A stretch of DNA of 64,000 nucleotides from a virus (taxonomy: Duplodnaviria > Heunggongvirae > Uroviricota > Caudoviricetes): the IMG/VR virus record IMGVR_UViG_2974578479_000001, positions 1 to 64,000 of that record; one strand, given 5' to 3'. A program made the translations under genes and the position numbers. This document shows, in pieces, positions 52,616 through 61,446 of this stretch; the first letter of the stretch is position 1; each line of letters opens with the position of its first letter. The notes under the pieces are model-generated. The model saw only the letters and a program-made list of their open reading frames with translations, was not told the DNA's origin and made no database searches.

Positions 52616-53521
52616 TTAAGCAGTTACTGTTACGACACACGTATCGGTTTTAGAACCGTCAGTTGTTGTCACAGTAATAGTACTTGTACCAACTGCTACA
52701 GCAGTAATTAAACCACTTGAGCTAACAGTTGCTGTTGCTGGAGTACCAGAAACATAAGTTACTGCCTTATTACTTGCAGTAGATGGGGCAATAGTTGCAG
52801 TTAGTTGTTGGGTTGTAGTTCCAGCTAGGCTTAGAGATACAGTTTTTGGTGCTAGGGTAACTCCGGTTACAGCAGTTGTCACAGTTACTACACAAGTATC
52901 GGTTTTAGAACCGTCAGATGTTGTAGCAGTGATTGTTGCAGAACCGTTAGCTACAGCAGTAACCAAGCCAGTACTTGAAACCGTAGCCTTTGTTGCATCA
53001 TCAGAAGACCATGCAATAGATTTATCGGTTGCATCAGATGGTGCTACCGAAGCATCTAGTTGAGAAGTAGCCCCAACTTTTAGTGCAAGTGTATCAGGAG
53101 TTACAGTTACTCCAGTTACAGCCACAGGGTCTTGACCCTGACCTTGATAGTTAGTTAAGAATACTGCACTACCATCTTGTAGAACAACTTTGTTTAGAAG
53201 TAAGCGAACTGCGAAACCTACAACATCACCAGCAGCATCTTTAATGCTAATGCAGAAAGTACCATTAGCTAAGTTGTCAGCTATATCAGAATTAGAATCC
53301 GCTGGATCTAAATCTACACCGGTTTTATCTACACCAGTAATTTTTACGAAAGGATAAACGGTTGCACCGTCAGCAGAAAGCAAATCAAACATATTGATTG
53401 AACGTTGCTTACTGATGCGTACATTTGTTAATTTAGTACCATCGGCTAGAACAGCAGCATCAACGTTGATGCCATCTACACCGAATGGTGACTTATTACG
53501 ACCAGCAATTGGTTTTCCCAT
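52616..53521 (-). CDS. Ig-like (BIG2) domain protein, candidate virion decoration/adhesion protein
   Basis: two C-terminal BIG2-like repeats (VTGVT..P.T..L..G.T.QL.A...P..A....V.Y.S......ATV...G..TAV..G..TIT); SD aggaga; T4-late-like TATAAATG ~30 nt upstream on the minus strand. Confidence 0.7.
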   Translation of the reverse strand: MGKPIAGRNKSPFGVDGINVDAAVLADGTKLTNVRISKQRSINMFDLLSADGATVYPFVKITGVDKTGVDLDPADSNSDIADNLANGTFCISIKDAAGDVVGFAVRLLLNKVVLQDGSAVFLTNYQGQGQDPVAVTGVTVTPDTLALKVGATSQLDASVAPSDATDKSIAWSSDDATKATVSSTGLVTAVANGSATITATTSDGSKTDTCVVTVTTAVTGVTLAPKTVSLSLAGTTTQQLTATIAPSTASNKAVTYVSGTPATATVSSSGLITAVAVGTSTITVTTTDGSKTDTCVVTVTA

Positions 53522-53597
53522 AATTAATCTCCTAGAGAATCATTTATATAATAATATTTATCCAGCCAAGGACTAATATATATTTATTAGGATTTCC

Positions 53598-53626
53598 TTG
53601 ACATAAATGTGAAGATTTGATATACT
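53598..53626 (+). promoter_or_regulatory. sigma70-like promoter TTGACA-17-TATACT for natV
   Basis: read directly. Confidence 0.55.
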
Positions 53627-53712
53627 CTTTTGGTCTTAGAGACAATTAAATCTGAAGTATTTACTGAAAAAAAGTTGAAACATCAGAAAAAAATCTGTTA
53701 TAATATAAACAT

Positions 53713-53756
53713 CAAAGCGATGTAGCTTTGGCAACAATGACTAAGGGAGTCTTAGA
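53713..53756 (+). promoter_or_regulatory. conserved leader: hairpin caaagc-gatgta-gctttg plus ACTAAGGGAGTCTTAGA SD box (shared with nadV)
   Basis: a second copy at 55402-55444 has compensatory stem changes. Confidence 0.55.
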
Positions 53757-53757
53757 A

Positions 53758-54825
53758 ATGAAAAATGAAAAAGTATATGTATATATTGGTCGCTTCCAAA
53801 TGGCACATAAAGGCCATGAGGAAACAATTAAACATGCACTAGAAAATGCAGACCGTTTGGTAATTCTTGTTGGTTCGTCTGACCTTGCACGTGATCCTAA
53901 AAATCCGTTCAGTTTCACAGAACGTCAACAGGTACTGGATGCTATGAGTACTCGTTTAGCACAAGAAGAATGGGCTAAAGGGCGTTCGGTTAAGATTAAC
54001 ATCTTACCAATCCACGATTACGTTTATAACAACAGCAAATGGTTAAAAGAAGTACATGAACAGGTTAAATCTGTAACTGTCAGTTCTGATATTACTATTA
54101 CTGGTTGTCAGAAAGAAGCTGACGAAAGTACTTTCTATTTGAACTTCTTTCCACAATGGAAACAGGATTTCATTGAAGAACTTAAAGTTGATGAAGCAAC
54201 TATCAACAGTACTGAGATTCGTAATCAATTCTTCAGTACTAAACAAGTTCCAACGATTCTTCCAGAAGAAACTCAAGAGTTCCTAGAGAAGTTCATGCAC
54301 ACTAAACCAATGGTGTTTGATAATTTGATTGGTGAATTTAACTTCATTAATCGTTATCGTTCTGAAATGATCGAAAAGTTACCATTTAAAACTATCCCAT
54401 TTATTACTGGTGATGCTTTGGTAATTTGTGCTGGTCATGTTCTATTGGTTAAACGCCGCACATTCCCAGGAAAAGGTCTATATGCACTTCCTGGTGGATT
54501 CTTCGATTCTGAACAAGATGGTGATCAAGTAGATGCCGCGATTCGTGAATTAAAAGAAGAAACCAAAATTGATGTTCCAGTAAAAGTACTTTATGGTTCT
54601 ATCCGTGAAAGTATGGAATTTGGTGATAAAAACCGTTCTCTACGCTGGCGTATCATTACTAAGTGTGCGTACATCCAACTTCAGGACAATACTTTACCAA
54701 AAGTAAAAGGTGCTGATGATGCTGAAAAAGCATTCTGGATGCCACTTGGTGATTTGGTTAACAACCGTGATAAATTCTTTGAAGACCATTTGAGTATCAT
54801 TGATACTTTCTTAGGTATTCTGTAA
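53758..54825 (+). CDS. natV: bifunctional NMN adenylyltransferase / Nudix hydrolase (NatV-like)
   Basis: IGRFQMAHKGH (HxGH NMNAT) at the N-terminus; Nudix box GGFFDSEQDGDQVDAAIRELKEETKI at the C-terminus. Confidence 0.8.
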   Translation: MKNEKVYVYIGRFQMAHKGHEETIKHALENADRLVILVGSSDLARDPKNPFSFTERQQVLDAMSTRLAQEEWAKGRSVKINILPIHDYVYNNSKWLKEVHEQVKSVTVSSDITITGCQKEADESTFYLNFFPQWKQDFIEELKVDEATINSTEIRNQFFSTKQVPTILPEETQEFLEKFMHTKPMVFDNLIGEFNFINRYRSEMIEKLPFKTIPFITGDALVICAGHVLLVKRRTFPGKGLYALPGGFFDSEQDGDQVDAAIRELKEETKIDVPVKVLYGSIRESMEFGDKNRSLRWRIITKCAYIQLQDNTLPKVKGADDAEKAFWMPLGDLVNNRDKFFEDHLSIIDTFLGIL

Positions 54826-54833
54826 GAAATATT

Positions 54834-54856
54834 GGAGTACTTCGGTACTCCATTTT
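54834..54856 (+). terminator. terminator (ggagtacttcggtactcc plus atttt)
   Basis: hairpin plus T-tract. Confidence 0.6.
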
Positions 54857-54868
54857 AAGTGAGGTCTA

Positions 54869-55390
54869 ATGCTTTACTGTCAACCGAATAGTTTTTATGA
54901 TGAAATGATGTATGTATCAGAAAATAATGAGAGATTTTTAAAGAAACTCGCATTGACAGAATACAAAATACCTGATACAGTACTAAATCTTGAACCTATT
55001 GGATACCTAATAAAAATAGTTCTTACTGAACCAGATTTTTATGGCAATGATAAAATTATTGCATTACGAACTTTTGGTGTTAATGATTCATTAACAATGA
55101 CACCAAATTGTACTTATATGAGTGTTTATTATGCAATGATTGCAGAAGGTTCATTACTTATATCTAAACCAACCACTTCATATGTTTATATGAATGATGA
55201 AGGTGAAACGATATATAAGACTTCTGATGAGTATGGTGATGAATATCATTATCGAATAGAAGATATTGCAAAAAGTAAAAGTAATGATATATATGCATTA
55301 GATGCTTATGTATATTATAGCTCTAGATTATTTCGTCCAGATAATATCATGGCGAAAATACCAACATTTTTATTAAAAAACATGGCATAA
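54869..55390 (+). CDS. hypothetical protein (173 aa)
   Basis: SD taagtgaggtctaatg. Confidence 0.5.
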   Translation: MLYCQPNSFYDEMMYVSENNERFLKKLALTEYKIPDTVLNLEPIGYLIKIVLTEPDFYGNDKIIALRTFGVNDSLTMTPNCTYMSVYYAMIAEGSLLISKPTTSYVYMNDEGETIYKTSDEYGDEYHYRIEDIAKSKSNDIYALDAYVYYSSRLFRPDNIMAKIPTFLLKNMA

Positions 55391-55401
55391 GCCATCAACC
55401 T

Positions 55402-55444
55402 GAAAGCGTTGTAGCTTTCACACCTATACTAAGGGAGTCTTAGA
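55402..55444 (+). promoter_or_regulatory. conserved leader, second copy: hairpin gaaagc-gttgta-gctttc plus ACTAAGGGAGTCTTAGA
   Basis: matches the natV leader. Confidence 0.55.
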
Positions 55445-55445
55445 T

Positions 55446-56924
55446 ATGAAAAACTTAAATGTAAACTTTATTCTTAATGTTGATTCTTACAAAACTGGTC
55501 ACGGTTTTATGATGAAAGATGGCGTTGTAGCTCTCGAATCAAACATCATTGCCCGTAAACCATCCAAATTCACTACACATGTTGTGATGATGGGTATTCA
55601 GTACTACCTTCAAGAGTACTTGGATATTGTTATCACTGTAGATGACATTGACGAAGCAGAACATGAAACAAACCAACGTGGTGATGATTTTGATCGCGGC
55701 TTTTGGGAGCATATTGTAGAAGTGCATGGTGGTAAAATTCCATTGCATATTCGTGCTATTCCAGAAGGTACATTGGTTCCTGTTGGTTGTCCTTTAGTAC
55801 GTTCTTTCAGTACTGATGAACGTGTAGCAGTTATTGCAAGCTACATTGAAACTCAGTTACAACGTGCAATTTGGTTCCCAACAACTGTTGCAAGTAATGC
55901 TCGTAGCATTAAAGAATTTTTAGCAGATACTATGGAACGTCATGCTGGTCATCGTTTTGTAGATTATCATCTTCATAACTTCGGGGATCGTGGTGCATCA
56001 AGTTTCGAATCAGCAATTCTTGCTGGTATGTCCCATTCAACGGTATTCAGTGGTTCTGATTGTTTATCTGCTAACCGTTACATCAAACATTACTATAATA
56101 CTGACAAAGCATATTTGACCAGTGTTACTGCAAGTGAACATAGTGCAACTTGTTCTAACTCTGATGCAGACAAACGTGATGACTTCAATATGGCAGTCAA
56201 AATGGTTCGTTTGTGGGAGAAGAAAGTTGACAAGTACATTGCAAATGGTTCTGTTGGTGTACCACCAATTGTTTCAGTAGTAATCGATACTTACGATGCG
56301 TACCGTTTCGTTCGTGATTATATCGGTACTCGGTTAAAAGCGACAATTGAAGAAATCGGGAAACGTTGCCCTGGTGCTAAACTTGTTATGCGTCCAGATA
56401 GTGGCGACCCAACAACTATGCCAATCGAAATCATCGAACTATTGATGGAAAAATTTGGTAGTACTGTAAATGCACAGGGATTCAAAGTACTTCCAGCATT
56501 TATCGGTGTTATCCAAGGTGATGGCATCAATGAAACCAGTATTCGTCAGATTGTTTCTAATCTAGATGACAAAAAACTTTCTATTGAAAACCTTGTTTTC
56601 GGTATGGGTGGTAAACTTGTTCATCCTGAAGCTGGTCGTGATACTTATTCTTTCGCAATGAAAGGATCTGCACAGCAACTTGAAGATGGTACTTGGGAAG
56701 ATTTATTCAAAGACCCAATTACCGATGTTGGTAAACGTTCTCTCCGTGGTCGTGTAACGACTTATGAATGCACCAATACTCACAAAATCATTGCTGAGCG
56801 AATTGAATTACAAGAAGTCAATCCATTCTTGAAAGATATGATGGTTGATATGTACATTGACGGTGTTATCATGAATCTTAGTACTTTTGATGAAGTACGG
56901 GAACGTGCTAATAAAGGTCTATAA
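55446..56924 (+). CDS. nadV: nicotinamide phosphoribosyltransferase (NadV/NAMPT-like)
   Basis: N-terminal NVDSYKTGH motif; 492 aa, typical of NAMPT. Confidence 0.8.
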   Translation: MKNLNVNFILNVDSYKTGHGFMMKDGVVALESNIIARKPSKFTTHVVMMGIQYYLQEYLDIVITVDDIDEAEHETNQRGDDFDRGFWEHIVEVHGGKIPLHIRAIPEGTLVPVGCPLVRSFSTDERVAVIASYIETQLQRAIWFPTTVASNARSIKEFLADTMERHAGHRFVDYHLHNFGDRGASSFESAILAGMSHSTVFSGSDCLSANRYIKHYYNTDKAYLTSVTASEHSATCSNSDADKRDDFNMAVKMVRLWEKKVDKYIANGSVGVPPIVSVVIDTYDAYRFVRDYIGTRLKATIEEIGKRCPGAKLVMRPDSGDPTTMPIEIIELLMEKFGSTVNAQGFKVLPAFIGVIQGDGINETSIRQIVSNLDDKKLSIENLVFGMGGKLVHPEAGRDTYSFAMKGSAQQLEDGTWEDLFKDPITDVGKRSLRGRVTTYECTNTHKIIAERIELQEVNPFLKDMMVDMYIDGVIMNLSTFDEVRERANKGL

Positions 56925-56930
56925 TATTTT

Positions 56931-56955
56931 GGGGGCTTTTGCCCCCTTCTTTTTA
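56931..56955 (+). terminator. rho-independent terminator (gggggcttttgccccc plus T-tract)
   Basis: hairpin plus T-tract. Confidence 0.75.
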
Positions 56956-57016
56956 AGTTAAATAGAGTTATTAAAAGACAAATATAATCAATTTTATAAT
57001 TGAAAATGAGAAAAAT

Positions 57017-57217
57017 ATGAATATTTTTATGGCAGTACTAAGCATTTTCTGCTATATCTTTATAGGTTATCTGGCCTATCATGATCACAGAGAAAAGTTT
57101 AAAGAAGAACCAAATAAGAAAGTTAAGAAAGTACTTTATGCTACAACAGCGATAACATTATATGTTTTAATCGGATTCTTTTTAGCAGTACTTTTGTACT
57201 TGATTTTAACCATGTAA
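57017..57217 (+). CDS. small membrane protein (66 aa)
   Basis: two hydrophobic helices. Confidence 0.45.
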   Translation: MNIFMAVLSIFCYIFIGYLAYHDHREKFKEEPNKKVKKVLYATTAITLYVLIGFFLAVLLYLILTM

Positions 57218-57226
57218 GGGAGTATA

Positions 57227-57673
57227 ATGGCTGGAAAAGGATTTGTGGGTCTATCACTGGATATTGACCAAGCTAAAGAAATTCAAAGAATATTTAAAAT
57301 TGCTGGTGTAGATTGCTTGACACCATCAAAATTTCATGTTACTGTTATGTACGATGAAGACGAGCCGGAAATTGATGTTCTTCCGAATGACAAAAAATAT
57401 TCTGCAACTATTACTGGCGTTGAACGTCTTGGTAAAGTAGGTTCAAAATATGAAGCTATTGCACTAATATTGGAATCATTTGACATTAGTCAACGGCATA
57501 AAGAACTAAAAAACGCTGGATTTAAACATAAATTTCCAGATTTTAAATGTCATATGAGTGTACTTTATCAACCATCAGATACCGATTTGGATTTGATTGA
57601 ATTGATATATAAACTTGGGGTATTACCAGAAGAATTGACATTTGGTAATGAACATTTAGGTAATACAAAATAA
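57227..57673 (+). CDS. hypothetical protein (148 aa)
   Basis: SD taagggagtataatg. Confidence 0.5.
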   Translation: MAGKGFVGLSLDIDQAKEIQRIFKIAGVDCLTPSKFHVTVMYDEDEPEIDVLPNDKKYSATITGVERLGKVGSKYEAIALILESFDISQRHKELKNAGFKHKFPDFKCHMSVLYQPSDTDLDLIELIYKLGVLPEELTFGNEHLGNTK

Positions 57674-57683
57674 GTAGGTTGTT

Positions 57684-57899
57684 ATGAAAAACGACTTGAG
57701 CGATAATGAAAAACGACTGTACAGCGGGGCATGGGTAGATGAACATTCTTGTGCAAATAATAAAGTGACATGTATACGTTGCTTTGGTAGTTACATTATA
57801 CGTGAATCCCCACGCTCAGTACCAGGAACTGATGGATATTATATTAAAGAGCCACAGTGTCCTCATTGTAAATGTCGTTTATATTTTTCACATCTATAG
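57684..57899 (+). CDS. zinc-ribbon mini-protein (CxxC-x29-CxxC)
   Basis: CIRC...CPHC; 71 aa; immediately upstream of the sirtuin gene. Confidence 0.5.
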   Translation: MKNDLSDNEKRLYSGAWVDEHSCANNKVTCIRCFGSYIIRESPRSVPGTDGYYIKEPQCPHCKCRLYFSHL

Positions 57900-57907
57900 G
57901 AATACAA

Positions 57908-58699
57908 ATGGAACTCGAAAGCTTTCTTTTAAATCGTGGACAACCACGCCTAGTATTTGCAACTGGTGCTGGATTATCAAAAGAATCTGGTATTAATACT
58001 TTCCGTGACGCTGACGATGAAGGCTTGTGGGATCAGTACAATGTGGATGAGATTTGTAATATTGCAACTTTCCATATTAATTATCAAAAAGTACATCATT
58101 TTTATAATATGCTTCGTGTAAATTTAGCAAATGTTGAACCAAATATTGGTCACCATATAATTGCTGAATACCAACAACTATATGGTCATGACCGTGTATT
58201 ACATATTACTGCTAATGTTGATGATTTGGCAGAACGTGCTGGTGGTACAGCTATGCATGTTCATGGTAAACTGACTGAAGTGGTAGAACCATATAGTACC
58301 AATAGTGAGGATTATGAAGTACTGACCGTTGGTTATGAGAATTTCACACCAACACCAGGAATTATTTCTAAACCAAATATTGTAATGTTTGGAGAAGGTT
58401 ACTGGTTCACCGATGGTGTACGTAAACCAATTTATGATGATCTATATCGAGTACTTGATAATTTAACGTCACAAGATACCGTTATTATTATTGGATCATC
58501 TGATACTGTAATTCCTTGGTCTGTGTATGTTGGTTTAGCTACACCTGCTGAGACACTTAATGTGAATCCAGAAGCCCATGAAAAAGATGATTACTTTACT
58601 TATAATATGTACCAACCAATAAGTAATTCAGTAACAATGATCGATCAGTACGTTCATTCCCGTATGGATCGTCCTGATTATAGCAATGAAGAATACTAA
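57908..58699 (+). CDS. SIR2-family (sirtuin-like) NAD-dependent enzyme lacking the zinc-ribbon cysteines
   Basis: GAGLSKESGINTFRDADDEGLW; TANVDDLAERAGG; catalytic H in MHVHGKL; VMFGE; no CxxC...CxxC between the HG and FGE motifs. Confidence 0.75.
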   Translation: MELESFLLNRGQPRLVFATGAGLSKESGINTFRDADDEGLWDQYNVDEICNIATFHINYQKVHHFYNMLRVNLANVEPNIGHHIIAEYQQLYGHDRVLHITANVDDLAERAGGTAMHVHGKLTEVVEPYSTNSEDYEVLTVGYENFTPTPGIISKPNIVMFGEGYWFTDGVRKPIYDDLYRVLDNLTSQDTVIIIGSSDTVIPWSVYVGLATPAETLNVNPEAHEKDDYFTYNMYQPISNSVTMIDQYVHSRMDRPDYSNEEY

Positions 58700-58708
58700 G
58701 GTTATTTT

Positions 58709-59617
58709 ATGATAGGTTATGAAGAAATTGAATTTGGTACACGCTCAGATCGTTTTGACTGTGTATTCGTGTGGATTTACGCACGTAATTGCACCCCGTA
58801 TACTGGCTACCCTTATAATGACATTCCAAATGTTAGTCTAGTACTAACAGAATTGCGGTATGACGGTTTATTTGGAGCAGTGGGTGGAGCAGTAGAAGCA
58901 GATGATTTGAATCTAGAAGTTGCAGTACATCGTGAAGCAATGGAAGAAATTGCATATGATTTGCCTATTGAACGTTTAGAACCTCTGGCAACATATAAAA
59001 ATAAAATGAGTGGTTCTCATATTCATAGTTTCTCATTAGAAGTAACTTATGAAGAACTGCTTGAAATACGTAAGAACGCATACAACGGCGAGCATTTTAA
59101 TGCTGAGAATGCAGGTATTAATTTACTTCATATTTGTCGGTACTTAAAAGGTGGAAAAGTCGAATGTGGTTGGAATACAATTCTTGAACAGAATTTTGTT
59201 AGTACTTCTAAATTAGAACTAATGAAACTTGCTCGTACTAAAAATCTTGTCATTAATTATGTTGATGACAGTAAAGCACATACGGGTTCTTACAAGATGT
59301 TTATTGATGATCTTCGTGATGTTGAACAGTACTATCCAAATGAAGAATTTGTTGTGGTACGTACATATCAAGAAGCTGTTCAATATGTCAAAGAACATGG
59401 TATGCCATCTTTTGTGTCATTTGATCATGATTTGGGTGATACTGTTAACAAAGATGAAGAAACAGGATATACATTTGCTAAGTACTTAGTGGATTATATG
59501 ATGGATAATCGGATTGCAGTACCTTTCGAATATCATGTTCATAGTGCAAATCCAGTTGGTGCCATGAATATTATGTCCTATTTGGAAAACGCATTTAAAT
59601 TTATTCGGAGTTTATAA
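58709..59617 (+). CDS. Nudix hydrolase with uncharacterised C-terminal domain (FDHDLGD motif)
   Basis: Nudix-box core GGAVEADDLNLEVAVHREAMEEIAYDL; C-terminal ~150 aa unassigned. Confidence 0.6.
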   Translation: MIGYEEIEFGTRSDRFDCVFVWIYARNCTPYTGYPYNDIPNVSLVLTELRYDGLFGAVGGAVEADDLNLEVAVHREAMEEIAYDLPIERLEPLATYKNKMSGSHIHSFSLEVTYEELLEIRKNAYNGEHFNAENAGINLLHICRYLKGGKVECGWNTILEQNFVSTSKLELMKLARTKNLVINYVDDSKAHTGSYKMFIDDLRDVEQYYPNEEFVVVRTYQEAVQYVKEHGMPSFVSFDHDLGDTVNKDEETGYTFAKYLVDYMMDNRIAVPFEYHVHSANPVGAMNIMSYLENAFKFIRSL

Positions 59618-59919
59618 TGAAACGCATGTTTTGGTCAGCATTGTTAGCTGCATTTATAGTTTGGGTAATTTCTTGGGCGGTAACTTCAGGTAAAAGTACT
59701 GAACACCAAAACGTATATTATAATACTGGACAAATTGTTGCATTGGGTCAGTGTAAAGGTGGAGAATGTTCATACCAATATAAAGATAATACTGGCTCAT
59801 TGCAATATGCAACATCATCAAAACCAGTTAGTTTAGGCCAACTGGTATATCAAGAATGTTGGTACGAGGAAGCAAAAGGAGATCGCTGCTACGTCGAGTA
59901 CCAACCTAGCAAAAATTAA
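59617..59919 (+). CDS. secreted or membrane-anchored Cys-rich small protein (100 aa)
   Basis: N-terminal hydrophobic signal; TAATG coupling. Confidence 0.5.
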   Translation: MKRMFWSALLAAFIVWVISWAVTSGKSTEHQNVYYNTGQIVALGQCKGGECSYQYKDNTGSLQYATSSKPVSLGQLVYQECWYEEAKGDRCYVEYQPSKN

Positions 59920-59991
59920 TGGTATTTTAGAGTATTAAATACTATTAGTTAATACAAAGTGTTATGCACACAAACTATAAAAAGGATGTTT

Positions 59992-61446
59992 ATGAAACGA
60001 TATGTTCTTGACACAAACGTGATTCTTAGTGACCCACATGCAATTCTTGCATTTGAAGGTTCACATGTTATTCTTCCATTCACAGTACTAGAAGAATTAG
60101 ATTCCATTAAGAGTCGCAAAGTTGATATTAGTAGAGATGCACGTGTTGCGGTTCGCAATATTAGTGCTATTCTTGAAGGTGCAACTCATGAAGAAATTGC
60201 CACCACTGGTGTTCCAATTTCACGTACTCACACCAATATTCACGAGGATACCCGTCTTTTTGTTCTAACCATTGAAGAACTTGATGCAATTAAAACATTA
60301 ACTGGAACTACTTCAGATGATGTTGAATATGCAAAAAATGAAACTCTACGTAATAGCACTGTACCAGATGATAAAATTATTCTAGTTGCAAAACTAAGTA
60401 ATTCTGTACTAGTAACTCGTGATATTAATATGCGAATTAAAGCACTTGCATATGGTGTTGAAGTTCAAGATTATCGTCATGATGTAACAATCGAAGATTC
60501 TGATTTGATTCATACTGGTCACCATGAAGTTGAAGGTTCTATTTGGGATCGCCTTGGTACTGTTTATTCTGAACAACATGGCACCAAACTATTACACTTC
60601 GTACCAAAGGATCAAGTTGATTTCCTACCACCAAATATTTGTGTAGGCGATTTCGTTTATGACGAAGCTGATGTACTTTTTGTTTATGAAGGTGAAGGTG
60701 CACGTTTGGATGAGAATGATGAACCAATTGATGATGAGCAATATGTTGCCTTTATTGATGTTGGACAATCTTCTGCACTAAATCGTAAAGTTTGGCATAT
60801 CAAAGCTAAAAATATCCAACAAGCTATGGCAATTAACAGTATTATGGATAGTGATGTTCATATTACAGTACTATTAGGTTCAGCAGGTACTGGTAAGACT
60901 CTAATTACAATGGCATGTGCGTTAGATCTAGTAATGGAACTAAAGCATAAAAACAAACGTTATGAACGTATTATTTTCTCCAAAACCCAAGATTCCCAAT
61001 TCGAAGATATTGGTTTCTTACCAGGTACTGAAATGGAAAAAGTAATGCCATTCTGTGGTGCGGCAGTTGACGCATTGGAATATCTACACAAAGATGATGC
61101 AAATCCTCAAGGATCAATCGATGAGATTTTAAAACGTAATAAGTTCCAATTCAAAGCATTGAACTTCGTTCGTGGACGTAGTTTCATTAATACAATTCTT
61201 ATTGTAGATGAATTCCAAAATATTACTCCTGCACAAGCAAAAACCATTTTGACTCGTGCTGGTGAGAACTGTAAAGTAATCATTATGGGTAACTTATCTC
61301 AGATTGACAATAAGTTTGTAAGTCCAACTAATAGTGGATTAACTTATGTTACTGAGAAGTTCAAAGATTGGGAAGGTTGTAGAATCATTGAACTAGAAGG
61401 TGTTGTTCGTTCACCACTAGCTGCTTTTGCAGAAGAAAATCTATAA
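59992..61446 (+). CDS. phoH: PIN-domain plus PhoH-like ATPase
   Basis: N-terminal PIN (VLDTNVIL...EELD); Walker A LLGSAGTGKT; IVDEFQN Walker B. Confidence 0.8.
   Translation: MKRYVLDTNVILSDPHAILAFEGSHVILPFTVLEELDSIKSRKVDISRDARVAVRNISAILEGATHEEIATTGVPISRTHTNIHEDTRLFVLTIEELDAIKTLTGTTSDDVEYAKNETLRNSTVPDDKIILVAKLSNSVLVTRDINMRIKALAYGVEVQDYRHDVTIEDSDLIHTGHHEVEGSIWDRLGTVYSEQHGTKLLHFVPKDQVDFLPPNICVGDFVYDEADVLFVYEGEGARLDENDEPIDDEQYVAFIDVGQSSALNRKVWHIKAKNIQQAMAINSIMDSDVHITVLLGSAGTGKTLITMACALDLVMELKHKNKRYERIIFSKTQDSQFEDIGFLPGTEMEKVMPFCGAAVDALEYLHKDDANPQGSIDEILKRNKFQFKALNFVRGRSFINTILIVDEFQNITPAQAKTILTRAGENCKVIIMGNLSQIDNKFVSPTNSGLTYVTEKFKDWEGCRIIELEGVVRSPLAAFAEENL

Follow-up and report, generated by a model that had tools for sequence, protein, structure and literature searches.

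A shared two-hairpin leader upstream of natV and nadV in Serratia phage BF, a candidate translational operator

The window analysed here, a stretch of 64,000 nucleotides, comes from the 357-kb genome of the Rak2-like jumbo Serratia phage BF (KY630187), whose bases 1-64000 it matches at 100% identity and with the same coordinates. A preliminary description had grouped natV, nadV, a sirtuin gene and a second Nudix gene into one NAD+ metabolism island. All four genes are annotated in KY630187, so the gene content is already known, and profile searches of the four proteins recovered the NAMPT, NMNAT/Nudix, SIR2 and Nudix domains that had been proposed, NCBIfam and PHROGs agreeing with the Pfam calls for the natV, nadV, sirtuin and Nudix-cREC genes (Table 1). 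NadV scored 419 bits against NCBIfam NF006629 (cutoff 405), and direct reading of the NatV translation revealed the motifs AHKGH, NSTEIR and RELKEE. The assignment of the pair to the salvage route of phage KVP40 was thus confirmed by its NMNAT-Nudix and NAMPT domains, the route now being named NARP2 (bioRxiv 10.1101/2024.02.11.579819). For natV, the TTG start at 53728 given by a mechanical list of open reading frames was rejected and corrected to the ATG at 53758. The preliminary description had overlooked the conserved orphan gene BF_0107, the 2H gene BF_0110 and the terminators after natV and nadV.

Table 1. Features of the natV-PhoH region of phage BF (positions in the window)
Feature	Position	Strand	Description
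Promoter P1	53598..53626	+	sigma-70-like, TTGACA-N17-TATACT with TG
Promoter P2	53675..53704	+	TTGAAAC-N-TGnTATAAT
natV leader hairpin 1	53713..53730	+	CAAAGC-GATGTA-GCTTTG
natV Shine-Dalgarno box	53740..53756	+	ACTAAGGGAGTCTTAGA; hairpin CTAAG-GGAGT-CTTAG, GGAG in loop
natV (BF_0106)	53758..54825	+	bifunctional NMN adenylyltransferase and Nudix ADP-ribose pyrophosphatase; Pfam CTP_transf_like, NUDIX
Intrinsic terminator after natV	54833..54852	+	TGGAGTAC-TTCG-GTACTCCA then TTTT
BF_0107	54869..55390	+	conserved orphan between natV and nadV; phrog_25832
nadV leader hairpin 1	55402..55419	+	GAAAGC-GTTGTA-GCTTTC; intercistronic
nadV Shine-Dalgarno box	55428..55444	+	17-mer identical to natV box, folds to same hairpin
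nadV (BF_0108)	55446..56924	+	nicotinamide phosphoribosyltransferase; Pfam NAMPT_N, NAPRTase
Strong intrinsic terminator after nadV	56931..56946	+	GGGGGC-TTTT-GCCCCC then TTCTTTTT
Promoter-like site opening BF_0109 to BF_0114 unit	56971..57000	+	TTAAAA-N18-TATAAT; consensus match only
BF_0110	57227..57673	+	2H phosphoesterase, Acb1 family; motifs HxT (FHVTV), HxS (CHMSV)
BF_0111	57684..57899	+	small phage zinc-binding protein; PF23903
BF_0112	57908..58699	+	sirtuin, distinct phage clade; Pfam SIR2
BF_0113	58709..59617	+	Nudt16/X29-like Nudix (residues ~19-180) fused to cREC (residues ~195-294)
BF_0115	59992..61446	+	PIN and PhoH (PhoH2-like); PIN endoRNase of the published neighbourhood (PMC9503650)

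In the sirtuin BF_0112, the zinc-ligand cysteines are all absent, which bears out its earlier reading as zinc-ribbon-less; TANVD replaces TQNID, and an additional GYWFTDGVRK insert is present. BF_0113 had been recognized correctly as a second Nudix protein (Nudt16-like), but incompletely, since it also has a C-terminal cREC domain (Pfam Nudt16-like/NUDIX and cREC_REC). The CBB ortholog of BF_0110 (76% identity) is contained in CBB virions, as found by mass spectrometry. Iyer et al. 2022 name the sirtuin of phage BF (AQW88637.1) with its 2H, Nudix-cREC and PIN neighbours, and predict for this neighbourhood the role of an NAD+-using RNA-repair cluster (PMC9503650, section 3.7.3). The 2H protein is now classed with Acb1 in Pfam; this makes an anti-CBASS role conceivable, a reading absent from PMC9503650.

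Upstream of natV, the CTTGACA and -10 element of P1 are kept in Yen9-04, GAP32 and CBB, and P2 fits the "divergent RpoD-like" TGAAACG promoter class described for CBB and GAP32 (PMC5259590). The terminator after natV retains its stem in relatives, with a varying loop. As terminators and a promoter separate the sirtuin cluster from natV and nadV, we see no sign of one integrated unit, and the locus is best explained as a patchwork of distinct transcription units rather than a single machine. natV alone would form the first unit and BF_0107-nadV the second, the two jointly encoding the known NARP2 route, while BF_0109 to BF_0114, followed by the PIN-PhoH gene, would form a third, matching the published sirtuin/2H/Nudix-cREC/PIN neighbourhood.

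The preliminary description had regarded a sirtuin beside NAD+ synthesis genes as unusual and as pointing to a single make-and-use unit. This view was not supported, because the cluster had already been published as a predicted RNA-repair neighbourhood, a reading that assigns the sirtuin, together with 2H, cREC and PIN, to the repair of RNA ends and not to NAD+ salvage (PMC9503650), and because it lies behind a strong terminator with its own promoter-like site and, according to a covariance model run over the BF genome, without the leader described below. Relatives moreover have one to five extra unrelated genes inserted between nadV and the sirtuin unit, and sirtuin homologs occur in ~1000 phage records (997 for the clade, mostly T5-like or rV5-like) versus 472 with a NatV homolog. 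It is therefore quite unlikely that the two salvage enzymes form one island with the sirtuin and the Nudix protein, making NAD+ for the sirtuin or jointly manipulating host ADP-ribosylation or NADase immunity, even though Eneladusvirus, Mimasvirus and Asteriusvirus share the syntenic gene order natV, nadV, sirtuin, Nudix, PhoH and every product touches NAD+ or ADP-ribose chemistry.

Both natV and nadV are preceded by a leader of ~50 nt, composed of hairpin 1, an A-rich spacer of 7-14 nt and a weak 5-bp hairpin showing the GGAGU Shine-Dalgarno sequence in its loop, 7-9 nt upstream of the AUG. The covarying hairpin and the identical Shine-Dalgarno box noted in the preliminary description were confirmed; the folding of the 17-nt box into a hairpin of its own had been overlooked. 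The identical two hairpins were obtained from RNAalifold and from single-sequence folds. Hairpin 1 conserves a G-W-W-G-U-A hexaloop (G-A/U-U/A-G-U-A) on at least 12 covarying stems (CAAAGC, CAAGGT, CAAGGC, GAAAGC, GGAAGC, GTAGC, GACAGC, GCCGCT, GAAAGGC, GAAAAGT, AGAGAGT and AGAGAAC). Across 22 distinct leaders, 95.7% of the cells pair and two-sided changes affect four of the six hairpin-1 pairs, giving a covariation score of 0.281 versus 0.123 in shuffles, none of the 500 reaching 0.281; slid controls did not exceed 0.096. The likeness of the two leaders does not stem from duplication of the coding sequence, as it does not extend past the first three codons, which spell MKN in each gene; in GAP32, the natV and nadV N-termini differ (MKNEK versus MNTII).

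Some members of the family deviate. The Shine-Dalgarno stem is flipped in natV of a RaK2-size genome (CTTAG-GGAGTA-CTAAG), and in EJP2 the Shine-Dalgarno hairpin has a 4-nt loop (CTAAG-AGGA-CTTAG) and the hairpin-1 loops read GCGAAG and GCGGA. The nadV leaders of EJP2 and two uncultured relatives (L029, L031) retain hairpin 1 and have lost the Shine-Dalgarno hairpin, which indicates that the two hairpins are not strictly interdependent. Both elements are also inverted repeats in DNA, and bacteria usually control their NAD+ regulons through DNA, as would suit operators bound by a dimeric NadR-, NrtR- or NiaR-type transcription factor. Such a role is nevertheless extremely improbable: the half-sites of hairpin 1 vary freely around a conserved, non-palindromic centre, where a DNA operator would show the opposite pattern, the Shine-Dalgarno palindrome has a loop of 5, 4 or 6 nt, and the sites lie ~10-55 nt downstream of a promoter or within an operon.

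The element is highly specific. ACTAAGGGAGTCTTAGA occurs at exactly two sites in the window, with no further site at up to three mismatches (chance expectation 0.13). Over the entire BF genome, the covariance model scored the two leaders at 69.1 and 67.9 bits and the next best hit at 22.6 bits, so that only 2 of ~550 genes carry the element, and the rest of the BF genome shows no enrichment of hairpins with the hairpin-1 loop. In IMG/VR the box has 15 exact matches, every one of them lying 0-2 nt upstream of a natV or nadV ATG, and the complete genomes of GAP32, CBB and Yen9-04 have two exact matches each. Between genera, the box is identical at 17 of 17 positions, compared with only 57-66% identity at the four-fold degenerate sites of nadV. 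This conservation across genera points to the co-regulation proposed in the preliminary description, and the leader, a new and apparently undescribed part, probably co-regulates the translation of natV and nadV.

A matched ribosome-binding cassette working without any trans-acting factor, in which an equal, fixed initiation rate would keep NMN from accumulating, seems hardly likely. The Shine-Dalgarno sequence, its spacing and the first three codons are indeed the same in both BF genes, and a hairpin as weak as this (5 bp, three of them A-U) should tune initiation and not block it. However, equal initiation is achievable by many sequences, which leaves unexplained the identity of the box across genera. 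The cassette model also fails to account for the hairpin-1 loop kept on changing stems and for the retention of hairpin 1 in relatives whose nadV lacks the Shine-Dalgarno hairpin.

An exclusive tie to two genes that serve one metabolic pathway is a classic riboswitch signature. A small riboswitch here would take NAD+, NMN, nicotinamide, ADP-ribose or PRPP as its ligand and directly control access to the Shine-Dalgarno sequence; the guanidine-II/mini-ykkC riboswitch, with its two short hairpins, conserved loops and variable linker, offers a precedent for the architecture. The leader nevertheless matches no Rfam family at E up to 10, NAD+ riboswitch families included; it has no conserved internal loop, junction or pseudoknot, its two loops are non-complementary by inspection, its linker varies in length and sequence, and some nadV leaders do without the second hairpin. 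Nor does the motif accompany natV and nadV into the unrelated NARP2 phages PVA23, KP27 and DLP_6, loci with ~40% NatV identity, or bacteria. A riboswitch is thus distinctly improbable.

We tentatively read the leader as a translational operator for a putative RNA-binding factor, a reading that we hold possible rather than probable. A precedent is the T4/RB69 gp43 operator, a conserved-loop hairpin adjoining the Shine-Dalgarno sequence (PMC3014915). We infer action on translation through a bound protein: the hairpin-1 loop would be recognised by a trans-acting factor, most likely a phage product, which would stabilise or open the Shine-Dalgarno hairpin and so set the translation of both enzymes together. 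In the known NARP2 route, NadV converts nicotinamide and PRPP into NMN, which NatV adenylates to NAD+, while the Nudix domain of NatV can split ADP-ribose to yield AMP and ribose-5-phosphate. The route regenerates NAD+ lost to host NADase defences. NARP2 uses PRPP and overproduces NAD+, and the KVP40 operon is toxic in E. coli (10.1101/2024.02.11.579819). The operator would plausibly serve to keep the two enzymes in balance and to restrain a pathway that drains PRPP and is potentially toxic. [quoted passage not shown] The deviating hairpin-1 loops of EJP2 and the loss of the Shine-Dalgarno hairpin from some nadV leaders speak against an operator, as does the use of the element in two contexts, close to a 5' end ahead of natV but between cistrons ahead of nadV, which also fits a processing site.

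Hairpin 1 might instead cap the natV and nadV messages against 5'-end-dependent decay, or the leader might be an endoribonuclease target, for example for a RegB-like enzyme that would cut the unpaired GGA of the Shine-Dalgarno loop and switch the pathway off. The start site predicted for P2 would place natV hairpin 1, which begins ~8 nt past the -10 element, a few nt from the 5' end, and the nadV hairpin lies 11 nt past the BF_0107 stop codon, where a cut would release a hairpin-capped message. RegB alone cleaves GGAG with the GGA unpaired and the fourth G constrained, and the 5-nt GGAGU loop fits this S1-independent substrate (PMC3014915). We consider processing or stabilisation unlikely, because simple stabilisation would not depend on the sequence of the loop, which is nevertheless better conserved than any other part; for a RegB-like cut, the 3' context UCUUAGA is at odds with the RegB/S1 consensus RAYARAA (PMC3014915), and 2 of ~550 genes contrast with a broad RegB regulon. 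Neither a RegA nor a RegB homolog was detected, a weak negative that counts against the operator and against a RegB-like cut alike.

Compared with known systems, the sirtuin neighbourhood of PMC9503650 is the BF locus itself, with no difference in content, and its function remains a prediction. The salvage genes resemble the NARP2 of KVP40 in domain make-up (NAMPT_N with NAPRTase; NMNAT with Nudix), in their proximity and in their occurrence in a large myovirus (10.1101/2024.02.11.579819). They differ in that BF NatV is ~34-37% identical to the proteins of the KVP40 group, a conserved orphan gene lies between natV and nadV, and both genes bear a lineage-specific leader that is absent from the KVP40-like phage PVA23. 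NAD+ riboswitches of class I (nadA motif) and class II (pnuC motif) are likewise cis elements in the 5' leaders of NAD+ supply genes, class II occluding the Shine-Dalgarno sequence; the BF leader, without a covariance-model match to them at E up to 10, has a different, much simpler architecture and is confined to one phage lineage. Like T4 RegB sites, the BF box is a Shine-Dalgarno GGAG with the GGA unpaired (PMC3014915), but its 3' context mismatches GGAGRAYARAA and each genome holds two sites only. Parallels in organization are also offered by the T4/RB69 gp43 operator and the RegA regulon, with a conserved-loop hairpin by the Shine-Dalgarno sequence and several genes controlled via their initiation regions (PMC3014915). 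Unlike the unstructured RegA sites, the BF leader is structured, and unlike the gp43 operator, it has another loop sequence, places the Shine-Dalgarno sequence itself in a hairpin loop and precedes two genes of one metabolic pathway instead of the regulator's own gene.

Comparison of the 6-kb stretch with the genome of Serratia phage BF (KY630187; 357,154 bp), a Rak2-like jumbo myovirus of the genus Eneladusvirus, revealed 100% identity with equal coordinates. The existing annotation of this record already describes BF_0106 (NatV) as a bifunctional NMN adenylyltransferase/ADP-ribose pyrophosphatase, BF_0108 (NadV) as a nicotinamide phosphoribosyltransferase, BF_0112 as Sir2-like and BF_0113 as a nudix hydrolase, and the gene order of the locus recurs in Yersinia phage fHe-Yen9-04, Cronobacter phage GAP32, Pectobacterium phage CBB, Xanthomonas phage XbC2 and Escherichia phage EJP2. 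The CBB genome paper had already pointed out these NAD+ genes, alongside PnuC and a second adenylyltransferase (PMC5259590). As the genes are annotated and the sirtuin cluster has been discussed in print for phage BF itself, the gene content of the locus adds nothing new. The RNA leader shared by natV and nadV is apparently previously undescribed; we found no paper describing it.

Features of the NAD+ locus of phage BF (window numbering)
Feature	Position	Description
Leader hairpin 1, natV	53713-53730	upstream of the box
natV (BF_0106)	53758-54825	cytidylyltransferase-like NMNAT domain and Nudix domain (Pfam)
Terminator after natV	54833-54852	UUCG loop; stem kept, loop varies in relatives
BF_0107	54869-55390	conserved orphan gene between natV and nadV
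Leader hairpin 1, nadV	55402-55419	upstream of the box
nadV (BF_0108)	55446-56924	NAMPT_N and NAPRTase (Pfam E 2.5e-12 and 2.6e-32)
Terminator after nadV	56931-56946	strong, GC-rich
Promoter-like site	56971-57000	opens tightly packed BF_0109 to BF_0114 unit (2H, sirtuin, Nudix-cREC)
BF_0110	57227-57673	2H phosphoesterase; Pfam Acb1 PF23474, 56.4 bits vs cutoff 27
Sirtuin (BF_0112)	57908-58699	aligns with E. coli CobB 1s5p, E 1e-22
Nudix-cREC (BF_0113)	58709-59617	Nudt16/X29-like Nudix, REAMEE box intact, fused to cREC (E 1e-24)
BF_0115	59992-61446	PIN and PhoH fusion, resembles PhoH2 RNA helicase/RNase

HMM searches on the four proteins named in the preliminary description recovered the expected NAMPT, NMNAT, Nudix and SIR2 domains, and its reading of NatV and NadV as a two-step salvage route of the KVP40 type was borne out by Pfam and NCBIfam; at the level of the proteins this interpretation holds, but it was known before. 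NatV aligned end to end with the PRK05379 models (NCBI bifunctional NMNAT/Nudix) at 294 bits, under the equivalog cutoffs, and its translation contains AHKGH, NSTEIR and RELKEE, corresponding to the HxGH, SxTxxR and Nudix-box motifs. Its start codon is the ATG at 53758; the TTG at 53728, taken from a mechanical ORF list, was rejected because the reading frame would cross the leader. NadV scored above the curated NCBIfam NF006629 cutoff (419 bits versus 405). With these domains the pair corresponds to NARP2, the NadV-NatV salvage pathway, and is predicted to make NAD+ from nicotinamide and to provide rescue from defence systems that deplete NAD+. The KVP40 genes of this pathway were shown to overcome Thoeris and DSR2; NARP2 uses up PRPP and makes NAD+ in excess, and the KVP40 operon proved too toxic to clone in E. 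coli (10.1101/2024.02.11.579819). Outside the window, BF carries a NadR-like adenylyltransferase and PnuC pair (KY630187 264156-265998; segment L021 556-2398), an arrangement now called NARP3 (PMC13464706), and therefore has two NAD+ rebuilding routes. It also encodes an ADP-ribosylglycohydrolase and a macro-domain protein (KY630187 259440-260369, segment L020, and 109304-109804, segment L017, respectively).

Two promoter-like sites were identified upstream of natV. All relatives conserve the proximal site (TTGAAAC ... TGnTATAAT), which conforms to the TGAAACG class described as "divergent RpoD-like" in CBB and GAP32 (PMC5259590). In the relatives, the natV terminator keeps a constant stem (GGAGTAC/GTACTCC) with the loops TTCG, ACTATATA or TGAAAG; in EJP2, natV abuts the next gene without this hairpin. 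Between nadV and the unit of the BF_0109-BF_0114 type, relatives contain one to five additional genes. Given these terminators, promoter-like sites and extra genes, the "island" is a juxtaposition of at least three units and not one operon. The suggestion that the sirtuin is functionally coupled with NAD+ salvage thus receives no support from the anatomy of the locus, the genes lying in separate units that are further parted in relatives.

The sirtuin retains the Rossmann NAD+-binding motifs GAGLS and TFRD and the catalytic histidine (HVHG), TQNID is changed to TANVD throughout its clade, and BF_0112 has an extra insert after FGE. No zinc-module cysteine was found in the small-domain segment of any of the six clade members checked, whose whole proteins contain one or two cysteines; the term "zinc-ribbon-less" is hence accurate in the sense of absent zinc ligands. 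The second Nudix protein was also rightly recognized, except that its fusion to cREC, a domain defined in a 2021 jumbo-phage survey by Iyer et al. (PMC7824862), had been missed, as had BF_0107, BF_0110 and BF_0115 in an otherwise valid list of four genes. BF_0110 carries two HxT/S motifs, FHVTV and CHMSV, and matches solved Acb1 structures (PDB 9q2g, E 2.7e-4). These features place it in the Acb1 (anti-CBASS) family and predict cleavage of cyclic oligonucleotides, an RNA end or ADPr>p being an equally possible substrate (PMC9503650). Purified virions yielded 7 peptides (60% coverage) of its CBB ortholog, CBB_118 (76% identical), so BF_0110 may be packaged and delivered with the DNA. BF_0115, conserved in every relative, follows the sirtuin unit after a gap of 72 nt.

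Sirtuin, 2H, Nudix, cREC and PIN genes are thus co-located at 57227-61446 (Pfam), with no macro domain adjacent, the macro-domain gene BF_0194 lying about 50 kb away. Iyer et al. named this very locus as a sirtuin/2H/Nudix/cREC/PIN neighbourhood and predicted that it encodes a system for RNA repair that uses NAD+, with the sirtuin in a KptA-like role (PMC9503650, section 3.7.3); KptA/Tpt1-like, NAD+-dependent removal of RNA 2'-phosphates by the sirtuin is accordingly a prediction from the literature. Since the locus is in print and 997 phage records, most of them T5-like and rV5-like phages, contain homologs of the sirtuin, compared with 472 for NatV, a sirtuin near NAD+ synthesis genes is neither unusual, as had been proposed, nor undescribed.

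The leader is a real RNA element, both structured and conserved, that is confined to the NARP2 genes in Rak2-like jumbo phages. Its 17-nt Shine-Dalgarno element (the box), ACTAAGGGAGTCTTAGA, occurs twice in the window, each time 1 nt ahead of the ATG of natV or nadV, and no further site was found in the window at up to 3 mismatches (0.13 expected). The preliminary description had noted a covarying hairpin 1 and this identical box, and both stand; it had missed that the box itself folds into a hairpin, CTAAG-GGAGT-CTTAG, with the Shine-Dalgarno sequence in the loop. The same two-hairpin structure was obtained from single-sequence folds and from RNAalifold. The hairpin-1 loop is constant as G-A/U-U/A-G-U-A (GAUGUA, GUUGUA, GAAGUA, GUAGUA; once GUGUA) among relatives drawn from GenBank, IMG/VR and metagenomes, and the stem takes at least 12 different sequences, from CAAAGC/GCTTTG to GCCGCT/GGCGGT and AGAGAGT/GCTCTCT. 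Across 22 distinct leaders, 95.7% of cells pair, with two-sided changes in four of the six hairpin-1 pairs; none of 500 shuffles reached the covariation score, and slid controls collapsed. Stems free to vary around a conserved, non-palindromic centre, together with a loop of changing length, point to an RNA element, and a DNA operator was rejected.

The loop and first stem base (53719-53725 and 55408-55414) read AUG-UAG, UUG-UAG or GUG-UAG in most leaders, a start codon directly followed by a stop; this is probably a coincidence, because GAAGUAG and GUAGUAG variants exist too. There is also a resemblance between the loop and a portion of the SELEX consensus of T4 RegA, UUGUUAUGUAA.

The Shine-Dalgarno hairpin varies little. 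The box is identical at 17/17 positions between BF and GAP32, CBB, XbC2 and a 345,809-bp IMG/VR genome, against only 57-66% at four-fold degenerate sites of nadV. The departures are a 4-nt loop in EJP2 (CTAAG-AGGA-CTTAG), CTAAG-GAGTA-CTTAG in two uncultured relatives, a flipped natV hairpin in the 345,809-bp genome (CTTAG-GGAGTA-CTAAG), and loss of the hairpin ahead of nadV in the uncultured relatives L029 and L031, where the hairpin-1 loop is retained. That the leaders are merely matched, passive ribosome-binding cassettes appears doubtful to us. The exposed GGAGU of the predicted loop bears on another alternative, an element for RNA processing or stability, which would include the RegB-like cutting raised initially. 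The unpaired GGA within GGAG needed by RegB/S1 is present, but the 3' context, GGAGUCUUAGA, does not fit the consensus GGAGRAYARAA, and tblastn, here a weak test, found no RegB or RegA homolog (E up to 10). We regard this alternative as unlikely.

The specificity of the leader was assessed with a covariance model built from 15 leaders and scanned against both strands of the whole 357-kb BF genome. The two BF leaders scored 69.1 and 67.9 bits, and the next best site 22.6 bits. The latter (E 0.02; segment L018 27686-27727, KY630187 ~141586-141627) lies ahead of BF_0229 in the structural region and ends in ACTAAGGGATTAGAAATG, resembling the Shine-Dalgarno hairpin without a proper hairpin 1; it is probably generic. 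A general phage motif was rejected, given only two covariance-model sites in 357 kb; hairpins defined by the loop number 24 versus 15.5 in shuffles, the others being weak and inside genes. In 2.9 million IMG/VR contigs, each of the 15 exact box matches is followed within 0-2 nt by the ATG of natV or nadV, and the complete genomes of GAP32, CBB and fHe-Yen9-04 hold two copies each.

The leader is present wherever NatV is at least ~60% identical to that of BF and is thus lineage-specific. It was absent from KVP40-like PVA23, KP27, DLP_6 and metagenomic loci with ~40% NatV identity, from the region before the NadR-like/PnuC pair of BF, and, but for three chance matches, from 185,579 bacterial and archaeal genomes; of the two NAD+ rebuilding routes of BF, only NARP2 carries it. 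In the unrelated Stenotrophomonas phage DLP_6 (segment L040 3960-3994 and 5160-5185), natV and nadV both have the Shine-Dalgarno context GAAGGAGTTTC, which is able to fold so that GGAGU lies in a loop. A third nearby gene carries GAAGGAGTTTC as well, so this looks like a generic strong ribosome-binding site and not a travelling leader. A recent local duplication including coding sequence was dismissed, since the similarity stops at codon 3. The stem identities are gene-specific (C...G for natV, G...C for nadV) and orthologously conserved across Eneladusvirus and Mimasvirus, indicating that the two copies are old.

Association with these genes would favour a minimal riboswitch, which we nevertheless consider improbable: the architecture is simple, the linker variable, the distribution lineage-restricted, and cmscan of 53400-59700 with the Rfam models, including NAD+ riboswitches, gave only three chance snoRNA-like matches elsewhere in the stretch (E up to 10). 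It is likewise a long shot that the leader is a new ligand-responsive switch by which a jumbo phage turns its PRPP-costly NAD+ rebuilding enzymes on only when host immunity has depleted NAD+; such a switch could be a minimal riboswitch or the operator of a new regulator sensing NAD+, ADP-ribose or nicotinamide. If true, it would be the first regulatory sensor known for any counter-defence pathway of a phage.

NARP2 is a broad-spectrum but costly counter-defence, and its control by phages is not addressed in the literature we found. Restricted to exactly its two genes, the leader offers a concrete, easily mutated handle of 50 nt on this control and could yield a new RNA-protein or RNA-ligand pair, making a small experimental follow-up worthwhile. 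Our tentative preference is for a translational operator, bound by a putative factor, that co-regulates the two enzymes of this costly pathway. The 5-bp stem would have to open before the Shine-Dalgarno sequence in its 5-nt loop could pair with 16S rRNA, and the second hairpin would therefore be expected to lower initiation. The best conserved part is the hairpin-1 loop, which outlasts the loss of the nadV Shine-Dalgarno hairpin in L029 and L031 and looks like a recognition determinant. By inspection, this loop has no conserved complementarity with the box, spacer or early coding region that would allow loop-loop kissing or a pseudoknot.

BF_0107 is unlikely as the cognate regulator, as the 345,809-bp genome keeps both leaders but has, at the position of BF_0107, a 341-aa ORF that is unrelated and endonuclease-like (segment L015 1349-2374). 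This ORF contains zinc-ribbon-like pairs of CxxC, the endonuclease-like segment is C-terminal, and the whole resembles a homing-endonuclease-type insertion between natV and nadV.

As expected of a translational operator, the leader is a structured element whose conserved loop accompanies a ribosome-binding site that it adjoins or overlaps. The nearest known parallel is the gp43 operator of T4/RB69, whose hairpin likewise has a conserved loop beside the Shine-Dalgarno sequence (PMC3014915).
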